Shown here in pieces: positions 16,345 through 39,110 of a stretch of DNA of 51,075 bases. The stretch is from a phage. The position numbers were made by a program, and so were the translations under genes. The stretch's first letter is position 1, and each line of letters starts with the position of its first letter. The stretch lies in the sequence record PZ871099.1. One strand, written 5' to 3'. The notes beneath the pieces are model-generated. The model had not been told where the DNA came from. It ran no database searches and was given only the letters and a program-made list of their open reading frames with translations.

Positions 16345-16364
16345 ATAGCACAATATGTTAAAGC
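16344..16364 (+). promoter_or_regulatory. conserved intergenic motif copy, degenerate (AATAGCACAATATGTTAAAG)
   Basis: Starts at the stop of the I-like gene, upstream of the HNH gene. Confidence 0.45.
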
Positions 16365-16405
16365 GAAAACGGATTTTCGCTTTACAATTAATTAAGGAGG
16401 TGATC

Positions 16406-16882
16406 ATGTGGCGTGATATTTTTTATTATAATGACGGTAAGTTATTTTGGGCTGTAGACGTAGGAAGAAGGATAAAGAAAGGAAGTGAGGCAGGAAGCGT
16501 AAGCAAAAGCAAGAAGAGTGGAGAAAGGGTTAGAATATCAATTGATGGAGAAAGATACTACAGGAGCAGGATAGTTTGGGAAATTCATAATGGAGAAATA
16601 CCGCATGGAATGCAAGTTGATCACATAGATCACAACACAATGAACGACAATATTTCAAACTTAAGACTTGTTAGAATGAGTGTTAACAACAAGAATAAGT
16701 CGCTTTACAGGAACAGCAAGACGGGAATTACTGGGGTAAACTTTAGTCGCGGAAAATGGATTGCAAGAGCAAAGATTGATGGTGTTAGGCATGAATTTTA
16801 CTTTGATTCATTTCAGGATGCGGCAGAAAAGAGGATAGAGATTGAAGTTTTAAACAAATTCCACATAAACCACGGAAAGTAG
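16406..16882 (+). CDS. HNH homing endonuclease with AP2-like DNA-binding domain
   Basis: HNH segment DHIDHNTMNDNISNLRLV; AP2-like GVNFSRGKWIARAKIDGVRHEFYFDSF; flanked by terminators; RBS AAGGAGG before ATG 16406. Confidence 0.7.
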   Translation: MWRDIFYYNDGKLFWAVDVGRRIKKGSEAGSVSKSKKSGERVRISIDGERYYRSRIVWEIHNGEIPHGMQVDHIDHNTMNDNISNLRLVRMSVNNKNKSLYRNSKTGITGVNFSRGKWIARAKIDGVRHEFYFDSFQDAAEKRIEIEVLNKFHINHGK

Positions 16883-16888
16883 ATTTAA

Positions 16889-22231: not shown

Positions 22232-23287
22232 ATGAGTGATTTTAACGCCTATACTAGCGAAGAAATGAGCAATGAGCTTTATCATGATCCTAACGCGTGG
22301 ACGGCTGAATACGTCAGCGGTTCCAGCTTGGCGGAGATTTACAGCACTTGCCCGGCGTACTGGAAGTACAAGCCTCGCCAGGAAACCAAAGCACTTGTTT
22401 TCGGTACGCAGTCGCATACCAATTTTGAAAGCAAGGAGTTATTCGAAAAAACATATCGCCGCGCACCGTCGCAGGATGATTTTAAAGATCTGATCACAAG
22501 TCAAACGGCGTTGGCCTCAAAGCTGAAATCTTTTGGCCTGAAAGGTACGACGGGTAAGCAATACCCCGAATTGCTGGAAATGCTGTACAAGTGCGGTGAG
22601 GATCTCAATGTATGGTGGCTTATCGAAATGATGGCAGAATGCCAGGCCGCAGCGGACGGCGTGCAGCTAATCGACGCGAAAGATTATGATGCCTGTGTAG
22701 CGATGCGGCGCGTACTTGAGGCAATACCTGAGCATAATGCTTGCATGAATAGCCCAACCGCGCAGCGTGAAATGTCAATATTCGGGATCATCAATGGCGT
22801 AAAAGTTAAAGTGCGCCTTGATCACGTTGACGTAAACAAGGATGTAAAGGCCACAATCATTAACGGTTACGACGAAAAAGGCCGACCGATTTATGAAGAA
22901 GTCATCTATCCAGAAGCTGTGATTATCACTGACTATAAAACAACGGTTAGCGCAAATCCTGTTGACTTCCAGCGCCTGGCTTACAATCACGGCTATTATC
23001 TCAAAATGGCTTTGCAGCATGATTTATTTAAAAAGGCGTATCCAGACGAGGAAAGACCAGTAATTGTGAGATTGCTTGCTCAAGAGAAGAAAGAGCCTTA
23101 CTTGCCGCTCGCATTCCGCATGAACATTGAGCAATTGAAGATCGGGCGTATCCAGTACATGAGCGTGATCAACAAGTTCAACGTTTGCCAGCAGTTAGAT
23201 GAATGGCCTTCGTATGCAAACGGACAACCAGAAATTGATCTTGATACTCCTGATTGGGTCCGCGCTCAATTCAGGCAGTATCTATGA
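22232..23287 (+). CDS. PD-(D/E)XK family exonuclease (RecB/RecE-like)
   Basis: 351 aa; RecB-type motif III-like IITDYKTT; first gene of nuclease-annealase-SSB module. Confidence 0.55.
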   Translation: MSDFNAYTSEEMSNELYHDPNAWTAEYVSGSSLAEIYSTCPAYWKYKPRQETKALVFGTQSHTNFESKELFEKTYRRAPSQDDFKDLITSQTALASKLKSFGLKGTTGKQYPELLEMLYKCGEDLNVWWLIEMMAECQAAADGVQLIDAKDYDACVAMRRVLEAIPEHNACMNSPTAQREMSIFGIINGVKVKVRLDHVDVNKDVKATIINGYDEKGRPIYEEVIYPEAVIITDYKTTVSANPVDFQRLAYNHGYYLKMALQHDLFKKAYPDEERPVIVRLLAQEKKEPYLPLAFRMNIEQLKIGRIQYMSVINKFNVCQQLDEWPSYANGQPEIDLDTPDWVRAQFRQYL

Positions 23288-23348
23288 CAAACCAAACAAA
23301 TAGCTAAACTTTTATAATGGTTGGTGATATAATTCGCCAACCAGATAA

Positions 23349-24017
<669 letters not shown>

Positions 24018-24022
24018 TAAAC

Positions 24023-24044
24023 GGGGCGCTTGCGCCCCTTTTGT
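24023..24044 (+). terminator. terminator-like hairpin between annealase and ssb
   Basis: GGGGCGCttGCGCCCC plus TTTTG. Confidence 0.6.
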
Positions 24045-24060
24045 CATAGGAGAAAACAAA

Positions 24061-24513
24061 ATGCACGTTATTACAGGTGAGATCCGAAAAGAGCCAAAAG
24101 TAAAGCAAATGCCTAACGGCAGCACGCTATATATTGTTGAGCTTTCAGAACGATATAAAGACCGTGAAGGCAATTGGCAGTATACAAACTATGTATTTTT
24201 CTTTAACGCGAAAACAGACGGCCTGAATGGTTGGTATGCTGAGGCTTTCCAAGTAGGAAAGGTTATTTCTGTTTCCTGCGATACCTTGCGAGTTGAAACG
24301 CGAGAATACAACGGAAAGATTTACAGCACCGTGCAGCCTGGCGGATTTGCAAACCTGATATTTAGCCAGCGCGGAGAAAGCCAGCAACAATATCAGCAGC
24401 GAACGCAAGGAGGCTGGGGGCAACCACAACAGCAACAGCAACAAAATACTCAACAGCAGCCACAGCAAAGCAATCAGCCGCCGATTGACTTTGACGATGA
24501 TATACCATTCTAA
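24061..24513 (+). CDS. ssb: single-stranded DNA-binding protein
   Basis: OB-fold-like N-terminus, Gln/Gly-rich linker, acidic tail DFDDDIPF; start moved to 24061 because the track extension covers a terminator hairpin. Confidence 0.85.
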   Translation: MHVITGEIRKEPKVKQMPNGSTLYIVELSERYKDREGNWQYTNYVFFFNAKTDGLNGWYAEAFQVGKVISVSCDTLRVETREYNGKIYSTVQPGGFANLIFSQRGESQQQYQQRTQGGWGQPQQQQQQNTQQQPQQSNQPPIDFDDDIPF

Positions 24514-24514
24514 T

Positions 24515-24550
24515 AACAAAAAGCCCCGCATATGCGGGGCATTTTTATTT
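24515..24550. terminator. bidirectional terminator between ssb and the convergent tail fiber gene
   Basis: AAAAAGCCCCGCatatGCGGGGCATTTTT. Confidence 0.8.
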
Positions 24551-27163
24551 GAGATCAACAAGTTTTGCAACCATCGACTTTAATTCGTCAACCTCACTTC
24601 TTAGCGATCGCAATTCCTCCTCCTGCTCTTTGCAAACTTGCAATATGTATGCAGTTACCGCTGAGTAGTCAACTTGTAGAAATCTTTCCTTCCCAATAAG
24701 TTCGCTACCGTCTTTTGTTGGGCCATGCAATTGCTGATAATCCTCAAAAGAACTAATAGCCTCCGGCACAACCTCCATGATCTCTTGAGCTATAACTCCA
24801 GCATAAGGCATACCATCTTTCTTTAACGTGTATGTATACCCACTAACTTTCTCAAGACCTAGCCTTGCATTTTCAATTGGTTTAATGTCAGTTTTCAAAT
24901 CTCTGTCTGACCCCTGGTTAAATGCTGTTGCGTTCACAGGTCCGTTAACTTGCAGGTGTTTAGAGTTATTTGAGTTTAACTGAGCATAGAACACCCACCC
25001 AGGGCCGTTATCAAAACCCCACTCAATAACCGACGCCCTATCAGACCCGTTACCCCATAATTTGAATGTTGCAGGGTGCGACGAGTTGCCGTCGTTAAGC
25101 ATTTTGAAATACTTGCCACTCGGACGGTCGATCTCTAAACTTGCGGCCTGTACATATGCTTTCCCCGCGAAATTCTTAGTTCCGAGTACGACGCCGTCGG
25201 TGATCAATTCAACCTTAGAAGACGTGATGTTGTTCATAAACAGGGCGCCCGTTCCGGTGTCCTTCCCTAAAAACCAAAGACGCGTTCCTGCGGAGTTGTA
25301 CCCTGTTACATGCAGTGGTTGGTTGTTTGTTGACGCCGTTCCGTCGATACGAAAACCGCCATTGGCTGTTGTAACTTTAAGGCTGGGTACGGTCATAGCG
25401 AATGCGCCACTGGCCGCAAGGCCGTTATACGCGATCAGCTTGTTGTCATACGCAAACTCACCATTGTCGCGCATTTGTAGCACTTTCTGCGACGTCCTGT
25501 TGCGAATGCCAACATCAGATCCGCCAACAAACATCTCAACAATTCTAGACCCGCTTTTAGCTCTTACATAAGCATTAAATTCAGGAGATGACCCCGCGTT
25601 ATACAACTCGTACCATTGCGACCAGTTGCCAGTAGCAGCGTTACTAAGCCATCGCATAAAACGACGCCCGCTGCTGAATGTTGTATACGTCTGTATGCAG
25701 CTTTTAGGATCGTTAGCGCCAGTGCGCTGAACAAGTAGGCAGCCTGCCTCCTGAATGGGATAATTACGCTCCGGCGTTGCGCTGGCAGACGTGCTAGTAT
25801 AATAAAATCCAGCCTTATCGCCCTGAAGAACGTTAAGATCTTCGCTTACCAACGATGCCTGTCGCTCGTGCATTACCTGAAGGTTTTTTCTCGCTCCCTG
25901 GTCGTTCGATGCTCCTGTCCCGCCGTCCCCGATCGCCACGTCACCGTTAGCACCCAGCTTCGCCAGTTCAATAGCGCCCACATTTCCAGATGAGCCGTTA
26001 ATCGCGGCATTGTTTCCAGCGAAAACCTTCACGCGAGATGTCTGGTAGTCAACGTTAAACGCAAAAAATGTGTCACCAGCCCCGCCGCACACCCCTGGAC
26101 CATACCTGAACGGCGTCATCTCGCCAGAAGGGAACTGCGTAATATCATGGACGCGCCAGAATCCTCCTTTGACAGTATCGCGCAACCGCTTGAGCATATC
26201 CCTTACGCCAGTAGGCGCAGGTAATGTTACACCAGCATACGGCACTCTATTCTGAGCCTCTGAGCTTCCAGCAGCAGCCGCTGCGCGATCAGCCTCTGTT
26301 TTAGCCTTGTTTGCACTGTTTGCAGCATTAGTTTCAGATGTCTTGGCGTTTGTCTCAGAAGTCTTCGCGGCACTAGCCGAGTTAGCAGCATTAGTTTCCG
26401 ATGTTTTAGCCGCATTCTTACTTGCATTAGCTGCATTTTCAGATGCTTTGGCATTAGTTTCCGATGTTTTAGCAGCAGATGCAGAATTAGCAGCAGCAGC
26501 CTTGTTTGCGCTTGAGTTTGTCTCTGATTCCTTTGCGTTAGCTGCCGCGGCTGAAGCCTCATTCCTGAAATTTTCAGACTCGTATCTATACCTTTGGGCG
26601 TCTGTTTTGCTGGCATTTGCTGAAGTTTCAGATGCTTTTGCATTAGTTTCCGATGTTTTAGCCGCATTCTTACTTGCATTGGCTGCATTTTCAGATGCTT
26701 TGGCATTAGTTTCCGATGTTTTAGCGTTTGTTTCAGAAGTCTTTGCAGCACTAGCGCTTTGTTTTGCTGATTCAGCGCCTTGTTTCACCTGATTTACAAG
26801 ATCTTTCAACCCATCAAGATCGAAATCTCTAAAAAATTCAAGTGCGTCAGCGATCTCCGTTTCCTTGCTTTGATAGTAACGCAGTGTTTCCGCTACGTCC
26901 TGCGCCAGCCCGTCAACCGTTAACGAGTCATGAAGCAAGATCAGGTAATTTGTCTTTTGGACTGCCGCGCCGCCAGTAGTAATTGCGCGAATGCTTGTAT
27001 CGCTAATCACCTCTGTAATCACAGCAGCTTGCAAAGGTTGAGTAAGAAAGAAAATAGTTGCACCTGGGCGAATCAAGGTTAATTGCTCACGCCATTTTGT
27101 ATCGTAACCAGTTACATAACCTTGCGCGTCCATAGACGCTTGGCCTTGTCTGTAAATCGCCAT
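24545..27163 (-). CDS. tail fiber protein with C-terminal intramolecular chaperone (S74-like) domain
   Basis: About 870 aa; Ala/Ser/Thr/Asn-rich repeats ([21 protein letters not shown]...); C-terminal chaperone-like region (...[16 protein letters not shown]...); RBS AGGAGG before ATG 27163. Confidence 0.8.
26388..26725 (-). repeat. direct repeats inside the tail fiber gene (two 86-bp copies differing at one position, plus partial copies)
   Basis: Copies begin near 26388 and 26640 (GCATTAGTTTCCGATGTTTTAGCCGCATTCTTACTTGCATT...); encode the Ala/Ser/Thr/Asn-rich region. Confidence 0.8.
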
Positions 27164-38400: not shown

Positions 38401-39110
38401 GAGTTTGACTCAAAGACGGCGCGAGCAAATCCGCGCGGAGTGAGGGAGCGGATCATCTTTGTGCGCGATGACTTGCCGCCAGTTTTGGCCCATCCTGGAT
38501 TATCTTTGTCTTCCTCTTTCGGCAGGATTAAAGCGCGCGGAGGAATAACAAAGCCGTTGCCAGTCCAGAGGCACGTTTTCTTAAAATAGCGATCCCGTGC
38601 CGGAATAATATCAGGGAAGTCGGGATGTTTATCATCTTCCGGCAGATAGCCAGCGTAATCGCACGGATGGAACGTATAATCAGGCTTTCGCCATAACGTT
38701 GACAACTTGCCAACCGGATTTTCGATCATGTAAGGAACACCGAAATAATCAGCTATATCAGCCGCGATTCTGCAAGTGTCGGCGGCCTCATCTTGGAACG
38801 ATGGATTCTCAAGGCGTTTTTTGGCCCAATGGCGAGATCCGCTATTTGCAAGGTCGGTGCATGGTGGGAAGGCCATAATAAAATCAGGATTGCCCCACTC
38901 ATTATTGATTGCCTTAACATAAAAAGCATCATCAATCCAGACGTTAACGTATTCGATATTCTCATGCTGTATGCGCACTGACTGGTAATCACCGTGATCG
39001 CCGCCGTCAGCATTAAAGCAAATGCACTTATAGCCATTATCAGCCCAATCTTTAACGGCCTTACCAGATCCATCAAATAGGGAGAATATTAAACCTTTAT
39101 ACATCGTCAT
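38394..39110 (-). CDS. compact DNA cytosine-C5 methyltransferase-like protein (putative)
   Basis: Motif I-like FSLFDGSG, motif IV-like AFPPCTD, motif VI-like IENPVG in the expected order; no obvious target recognition domain. Confidence 0.45.
   Translation of the reverse strand: MTMYKGLIFSLFDGSGKAVKDWADNGYKCICFNADGGDHGDYQSVRIQHENIEYVNVWIDDAFYVKAINNEWGNPDFIMAFPPCTDLANSGSRHWAKKRLENPSFQDEAADTCRIAADIADYFGVPYMIENPVGKLSTLWRKPDYTFHPCDYAGYLPEDDKHPDFPDIIPARDRYFKKTCLWTGNGFVIPPRALILPKEEDKDNPGWAKTGGKSSRTKMIRSLTPRGFARAVFESNSK

Follow-up and report, generated by a model that had tools for sequence, protein, structure and literature searches.

What role does a pair of near-identical direct repeats play in the phage gene that contains it? 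The question is raised by sequence record PZ871099.1, a stretch of 51,075 nucleotides (nt) that was analysed at its full length and is called the window below. Judging from its sequence, the window looks like the whole genome of a T1-like coliphage (Drexlerviridae, Tempevirinae, Warwickvirus-like), and the repeats are located in its lateral (side) tail-fibre gene. An earlier reading of this DNA, hereafter the original prediction, proposed that such repeats can expand or contract by slipped-strand or homologous recombination and thereby change the length of the fibre. We consider it likely that the repeats encode the stalk of the side fibre, arranged as repeat, unique segment and repeat (R-U-R), and that recombination between the two copies would remove one unit of 252 nt.

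The repeat pair and the predicted stalk

The two direct copies of 86 nt are present as originally described, at 26388-26473 and 26640-26725 in plus-strand coordinates, with their starts 252 nt apart (Table 1). A single mismatch distinguishes them (A at 26429, G at 26681), and this difference is synonymous (GCT versus GCC, both coding for Ala). When up to three mismatches were allowed, a search of the window returned just these two sites, and none was returned from 100 shuffles. The boundaries of the block are sharp, given that, with the register kept, identity is 98.8% inside it but falls to 45% over the preceding 84 nt and to 44% over the following 45 nt.

The block corresponds to four heptads, and the ‘further partial copies’ of the original prediction turn out to be the underlying 21-nt period of the region. 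A repeat finder reports six copies with 60-89% identity and spacings of 21, 42, 63 and 189 nt, and Tandem Repeats Finder reports a period of 21 with 64% matches. Apart from the 86-nt pair, the 21-nt units have a mean pairwise identity of only about 48%, and the same heptad peptides are mostly written in different codons. For example, AKTSETN is encoded either as GCA AAG ACT TCT GAA ACA AAC or as GCT AAA ACA TCG GAA ACT AAT. The 86-nt pair agrees even at synonymous sites whereas the other heptads use varied codons, and therefore the pair reflects a recent event at the DNA level rather than convergence of the peptides.

Such a pair is also uncommon among related genes. Among 38 other fibre genes with this N-terminal anchor, direct repeats inside the gene (one mismatch allowed at most) usually have a maximum length of 12-32 nt and never exceed 49 nt, with the exception of phage JLBYU26, whose gene has an internal direct repeat of 87 nt at the same place as that of the window. 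Exact-pattern scans of IMG/VR and the JGI metagenomes for the 44-nt core of the repeat gave no match, and thus no extra alleles or three-copy variants, and the fibre protein was absent from a collection of 15 billion proteins on exact look-up.

Table 1. Positions of the fibre gene, its parts and neighbouring features in the window, counted on the plus strand
Feature	Position	Strand	Remarks
Lateral (side) tail-fibre gene	24545..27163	-	872 amino acids (aa), start MAIYRQ; open reading frame (ORF) list, orthologues, PHROG
N-terminal virion-anchor domain, ~aa 1-126 (predicted)	26786..27163	-	Conserved across Drexlerviridae fibres
Shaft, ~25 uninterrupted heptads AxxSExx (aa 127-304), predicted alpha-helical	26252..26785	-	Heptad table, AlphaFold2, sequence matches
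86-nt copy nearer the protein N-terminus	26640..26725	-	Repeat search
Unique 166-nt shaft segment between the copies (U of R-U-R)	26474..26639	-	Keeps the heptad register; Y192 and F199 at core positions
86-nt copy nearer the protein C-terminus	26388..26473	-	One synonymous difference between the two copies
252-nt unit (86-nt repeat plus 166-nt unique segment); 84 aa, 12 heptads	26388..26639	-	Lacking in JLBYU41, Poky and A16a; placement ambiguous across the repeat
63-nt segment; 21 aa, 3 heptads	26336..26398	-	Also lacking in Poky and A16a; bounded by a short imperfect repeat (..ACATC[G/T]GAAACTAATGCTGC..)
C-terminal intramolecular chaperone (Peptidase_S74, predicted)	24545..24910	-	Starts ..GSDRDLK..; PF13884, E-value 1.6e-11
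Predicted phage recombination module: PDDEXK exonuclease (22232-23287), ERF-family annealing protein (23364-24017), SSB (24010-24513)	22232..24513	+	Pfam DUF3799, ERF; orthologue annotation
Alternative-frame ORF, 174 aa	26227..26751	-	Strand of the gene, another frame; by-product of composition
Antisense ORF, 161 aa	26307..26792	+	By-product of composition

The gene that holds the repeats is, on the evidence of its sequence, a Drexlerviridae lateral tail-fibre gene, as indicated both by the N-terminal anchor shared by these fibres and by its position in the genome. It is located between the SSB and primase genes on the strand opposite to SSB, and this order is the same in JLBYU26 and in Escherichia phage Poky (Warwickvirus), which is collinear with the window over the first 25 kb at 98.5% identity. 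JLBYU26 provides the nearest match to the fibre gene (95.7% identity, equal length), and the encoded protein matches 25 PHROG tail-fibre families. Although a mechanically made ORF list places the start of the gene further out, at GTG 27187, the ATG start is supported because the JLBYU26 and Poky orthologues are annotated as tail fibres with the same start and because residue 1 aligns with residue 1 of DpK2, a depolymerase of phage RAD2. For Drexlerviridae lateral fibres in general, the literature so far holds no direct demonstration of their location in the virion or of their binding to surface glycans.

The protein is arranged in the order of anchor, repeat region, receptor-binding part and C-terminal Peptidase_S74 chaperone. 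Its residues 1-174 match DpK2 (PDB 7LZJ) with an E-value of 4e-61, and the anchor is common to 34 IMG/VR loci (43-88% identity over aa 1-128) whose proteins are otherwise different. For Drexlerviridae fibres, the BASEL paper likewise notes a shared anchor and a differing remainder. At the opposite end, the match to PF13884 exceeds the curated cut-off and is joined by matches to 6F45 and 7DC3. The motif GSDRDLK is found at the start of this domain, and the chaperone may cleave itself at the conserved Ser after the trimer has folded.

Between these ends, the repeats fall in a region that is rich in Ala, Ser, Thr and Asn, in agreement with the original prediction (32% Ala, 17% Ser, 13% Asn and 10% Thr, together with Glu and Lys at 10% each). 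A single heptad register runs without interruption through aa 130-304 (25 units), wherein Ala occupies one core position in 22 of the 25 units and Ser occupies the other in 18, and the 21-nt period of the DNA agrees with this seven-residue periodicity. The non-repetitive stretch keeps the register as well, such that Tyr192 and Phe199 fall on core positions, once each. AlphaFold2 predicts helices at residues 116-219 and 224-303, with predicted local distance difference test values mostly of 70-87 that decrease at either end of the region and where the break is predicted; the model is of a single-sequence monomer, and its chain folds back on itself at 220-223. No Pfam family matches the stalk of this protein. 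Sequence matches to the shaft are found in LtfA of phage DT57C (residues 47-223, E-value 1.7e-7), in RAD2 DpK2 (residues 122-174) and, weakly, in T7 gp17 (residues 163-270, E-value 8e-4).

From this sequence and modelling evidence, aa 127-304 would probably constitute the stalk of the fibre, placed between the conserved anchor and the receptor-binding part. The stalk is most likely a trimeric (three-stranded) coiled coil with an unusually small core of Ala and Ser, where the trimeric state is suggested by analogy with DpK2 and LtfA.

Heptads of this kind extend well beyond the gene described here. More than 870 proteins with unrelated ends match an AKTSETN-type heptad stalk at an E-value of 1e-10 or less, and a search with the stalk plus its flanks was flooded by hundreds of unrelated AKTSETN fibres; the module is therefore widespread, and no close alleles were added by this search. 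The same heptads were noted in hundreds of fibre proteins with unrelated N-termini, including a family that starts with MDFDAIITGI and has some members with a Gp10_C domain.

Length differences among related fibres

If the repeats affect the length of the fibre, how does this length differ among relatives? JLBYU26 has the same R-U-R arrangement and the same gene length as the window, with scattered point differences. Three other relatives, JLBYU41, Poky and ‘Campylobacter phage’ A16a, carry only one R and are without exactly 252 nt of the window's sequence (84 aa, 12 heptads). In both protein and DNA alignments, the 252-nt gap can be placed anywhere within the 86-nt repeat, and this ambiguity is what is expected for recombination between copies. 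Poky and A16a lack a further 63 nt (21 aa, three heptads) that are bounded by a shorter imperfect repeat, and the DNA flanking the indels is 96-100% identical to that of the window. All of the indels seen are multiples of 21 nt, and therefore the number of heptads in the helical shaft changes while the reading frame is kept. The differences in repeat number and fibre length that the original prediction expected among relatives are thus present, at 252 nt and a further 63 nt.

The record of A16a (MG065636.1) is marked UNVERIFIED and is classified as Hanrivervirus. Its fibre gene is 87% identical to that of the window, and its stated Campylobacter host looks doubtful.

The structure of JLBYU26 also bears on whether the duplicated block could be an artefact of assembly, with reads mis-joined where the sequence is repetitive. 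Assemblies do run into difficulty in repetitive parts of fibre genes, as illustrated by ambiguous bases right after the heptads of phage JLBYU09. However, JLBYU26 is an independent isolate and assembly that has the same R-U-R arrangement and gene length with scattered point differences, and the sequence between the two copies in the window is unique, in frame and in the heptad register. Because an independent genome shares the structure, we judge an assembly artefact to be very unlikely.

One receptor-binding region is thus found on stalks of approximately 174, 90 and 69 residues. For a coiled-coil stalk with a rise of 0.148 nm per residue, these would correspond to roughly 26, 13 and 10 nm. 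Across the wider family, the helix-compatible stretch that follows the anchor ranges from about 0 to about 210 aa, as compared among IMG/VR loci; a search for homologues of the anchor gave just 36 short or fragmentary proteins.

Several other Drexlerviridae fibre genes show irregularities in or near the stalk. One locus (L032) has a 30-nt tandem duplication (NKLEQIVADM/NKLEQIVADV) at about fibre codons 113-133, on the boundary between anchor and stalk, and another (L033) differs from a third (L030) by a large internal deletion of the stalk between ARD motifs. The duplication and the deletion are further repeat-bounded stalk indels of Drexlerviridae fibres. In JLBYU09 (L039, 2757-3603), the ambiguous bases stand directly after the heptad repeats and the fibre gene is annotated as two short ORFs of 207 and 95 aa, which points either to collapse of the repeats during assembly or to a genuine large deletion.

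Some Drexlerviridae entries named ‘tail fibers protein’ are just 151-216 aa in length, including those of phage T1 (P0016, 151 aa, which is simply short) and phage EC147 (P0003), as well as P0001. In the EC147 and P0001 proteins, a short coil comes after the anchor and leads into another short coil at the C-terminus, which is similar to the very last part of the chaperone domain, and thus the whole receptor-binding part appears to have been deleted. Growth on rough laboratory strains may have led to such short entries, through the loss of a dispensable fibre.

The shorter relatives are also informative with regard to the two long ORFs that overlap the repeats in other frames, which exist in the ORF list as originally reported. 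If either one were a real overlapping gene, the repeat might be conserved for its sake, and at 174 and 161 aa both are long enough to invite this suggestion. However, open frames of such length are expected from the codon composition of the region. The 174-aa frame is fully open in 62% of codon-order shuffles and in 100% of synonymous resamplings; the 161-aa antisense frame is fully open in 3% of codon-order shuffles, and is open for at least 150 codons in 19% of synonymous resamplings. Moreover, the relatives remove 84-105 codons from these ORFs without consequence, and the predicted products are low-complexity mirror images of the heptads. An overlapping gene therefore seems highly improbable to us, and the original view of both ORFs as spurious holds, as these shuffles and resamplings identify them as by-products of composition.

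An antisense open run that is longer still, at 193 codons, is located in the non-repetitive remainder of the fibre gene. Within this run, in the receptor-binding part, lies an antisense ORF of 169 aa (window 25062-25571, plus strand). Given that this ORF is outside the repeats, long antisense ORFs of the fibre gene are not specific to them.

Mechanism and direction of change

By what route might the long and short forms be related? A near-perfect direct repeat of 86 nt whose copies lie 166 nt apart is a good substrate for RecA-dependent recombination, for single-strand annealing and for replication slippage. We propose that homologous recombination, single-strand annealing or replication slippage between the copies would cause the loss of one 252-nt unit. 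Each chain would then be shorter by 84 residues, which amounts to 12 whole heptads and roughly 12 nm of coiled coil, with no disturbance of the reading frame, the heptad register, the anchor or the receptor-binding domain. The three close relatives described above would represent this shorter arrangement, with two of them carrying the extra three-heptad loss at the shorter imperfect repeat. The ERF protein, the exonuclease and SSB may have a role in recombination between the repeats, as their genes are located beside the fibre gene.

A number of observations weigh against this explanation or limit its reach. The proposed core of Ala and Ser is small and partly polar, in contrast to the large hydrophobic residues (Leu, Ile or Val) that are usual in coiled coils; the same pattern is seen in LtfA, which is described as a three-helix bundle. 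The segment equivalent to the shaft is unmodelled or only partly modelled in the solved homologues. In the MDFDAIITGI family, which is the largest with such heptads, the stalk is nearly constant in length (about 121-133 aa), and therefore heptads of this type do not in general go with stalks of variable length. Because the same receptor-binding domain is carried on stalks of about 174, 90 and 69 aa, length may be close to neutral and of little functional weight, and an effect on infection should be regarded as presumptive. Furthermore, the variation in shaft length known here is between the genomes of relatives rather than within a phage population. Lastly, two observations concern direction. 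The 166-nt segment between the copies is unique, and thus the long form was not made from the short form by simple duplication; in addition, simple parsimony on the flanks, where JLBYU41 is the most divergent and is short, mildly favours a single insertion over repeated deletions.

The observations on direction are in keeping with a different history, in which the R-U-R structure is the scar of one past out-of-register recombination between fibre alleles. This event would have inserted the unique 166 nt, which would make the short form the ancestral one and leave the repeat with no further role. In accord with such a history, duplication of the short form cannot account for the segment, JLBYU41 as the most divergent allele has a short stalk, and the long form is seen only in the window and in JLBYU26. 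The fibre gene is also visibly mosaic, given that the backbone of the window is nearest to Poky and its fibre gene is nearest to JLBYU26. However, a DNA search among 50,697 phage records found the unique segment in JLBYU26 only, and thus no donor for it. A near-perfect repeat with this spacing would be a good deletion substrate whatever its origin, and the same stalk has undergone a second independent in-register indel (63 nt). We regard a scar as possible, though clearly not as the favoured account. It is compatible with the explanation by recombination between the copies as to what the region is, and differs from it regarding direction and continuing variation.

Two routes to the present alleles can therefore be considered. 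Either the long form is ancestral and was deleted more than once, or it arose in a single out-of-register recombination with an unsampled allele. The present R-U-R structure is deletion-prone under either direction. Of the slipped-strand or homologous expansion and contraction originally proposed, the differences in heptad number are borne out. Contingency slippage on short units is not, with units that are only about 48% identical, nor is simple expansion, in view of the unique 166 nt.

Two near-identical repeats in a receptor-recognition gene that differ at one A/G position might also bring to mind programmed variation, either by a diversity-generating retroelement or by a slipped-strand on/off contingency switch. 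We give this idea almost no credence. A retroelement was rejected on the grounds that there is one difference in 86 nt, which is synonymous and is located in the stalk rather than in the ligand-binding tip. No reverse transcriptase is present among the 83 annotated features of Poky 1-50,000 (98.5% identical, collinear), with the window's own ORFs not all scanned. A contingency locus was rejected as well, because the 21-nt units are not near-perfect (48% mean pairwise identity) and all of the indels keep the frame and never switch the gene off.

A bolder extension of recombination between the copies would be that the R-U-R structure serves as a recombination-driven length switch, in which annealing is helped by the ERF protein, exonuclease and SSB of the phage. 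We hold this to be improbable. If it were true, every lysate would contain a minority of virions whose stalk is about 12 nm shorter, and these might provide a hedge against hosts that differ in the thickness of their O-antigen or capsule.

Relation to other fibres and to the surrounding genome

Is this locus a novelty among phage fibres? One close comparison is with DpK2 of the T1-like siphovirus RAD2, a Klebsiella phage, which is homologous over aa 1-174, including the first heptads. According to the RAD2 paper, an ‘extended triple helical bundle’ at the N-terminus of DpK2 precedes its receptor-binding part; this bundle could not be modelled at the atomic level in 7LZJ. However, the stalk of DpK2 is short (about 50 aa) and leads into a beta-helix capsule depolymerase, whereas the protein of the window has a stalk of about 175 aa, a different receptor-binding region and an S74 chaperone.

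A second relationship is with LtfA of the T5-like phage DT57C (PDB 8HQZ) and with T5 pb1. The heptads of LtfA 47-223, which have an Ala/Ser core, align with the stalk of the window, including the motif ESExFRxxA. According to the DT57C paper (PMC10713586), a long LtfA helix that begins at T40 trimerises into a three-helix coiled coil that points away from the tail, of which only the start of the helix is resolved. LtfA differs in its mode of attachment, which is by a lasso into the LtfC ring rather than by the Drexlerviridae anchor. No long DNA-level repeat is known in LtfA or T5 pb1.

More distantly, the stalk has a weak match (E-value 8e-4) to the proximal half-fibre of T7, at residues 163-270 of gp17, after the N-terminal tail-binding domain. 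This segment forms the rod-like coiled-coil part of the T7 fibre. The match is marginal and driven by composition, and T7 belongs to another phage family with another anchor. A parallel in architecture is T4 fibritin (gpwac), which is reportedly a segmented coiled coil whose number of segments differs among T4-type phages. Fibritin is a trimeric fibre in which the length of a heptad rod changes between relatives and the end domains are kept, although it differs in protein, in function (whisker/collar) and in sequence.

Changes of this type at the level of DNA have precedents in other attachment proteins. PMC7242381 and its references describe repeat-mediated in-frame changes in the collagen-like repeats of Streptococcus thermophilus phages and of the Guarani virophage, together with duplications in T4 gp37. 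As proposed for the fibre gene of the window, internal DNA repeats in an attachment protein act in these cases as recombination sites that lead to in-frame deletions or duplications, some of which alter host range. The repeats differ in that they encode collagen-like triplets or adhesin-tip motifs rather than an alpha-helical heptad stalk, and an effect on host range has been shown for some of them. A literature search gave no directly relevant report of heptads being duplicated or deleted in tail fibres.

The genome around the fibre gene has other features of its own. Adjacent to the fibre gene, the SSB gene contains a CAACAG hexamer repeat (2.8 copies, window 24427-24443) that encodes part of its Gln-rich C-terminal tail and is ordinary for SSB tails. 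Relative to the collinear Poky genome, the window has a 542-nt insertion at 16346-16887 that carries an ORF of 175 aa (16355..16882, plus strand) with an HNH_3 domain (E-value 1.3e-15). This ORF is probably a homing endonuclease gene, and it is located directly upstream of the central tail-tip (GpJ-like) gene. Poky in turn has an extra 258-nt gene (gp27) between its exonuclease and ERF genes (Poky 22888-23137), and the segment around window 38450-39107 is replaced relative to Poky. No tRNA genes or Rfam matches were found across the entire window.

What, then, does the locus tell us about the evolution of these phages? It raises no new biological question, as there is ample precedent for modular fibres, for heptad stalks and for repeat-mediated in-frame indels. 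The route is an ordinary and already familiar one in phage fibre evolution, of which this case is a tidy fresh example. Its merit is that the example is resolved to the base, and shows how the reach of a side fibre can change by whole structural units without alteration of the anchor or the receptor-binding end. The region is also a warning for assembly and annotation, in that it yields long false ORFs and that related records show assembly trouble there. For researchers who wish to engineer T1-like phages, the observation is useful because a stalk that bears one and the same binding domain appears to tolerate differences of 12 to 15 heptads.

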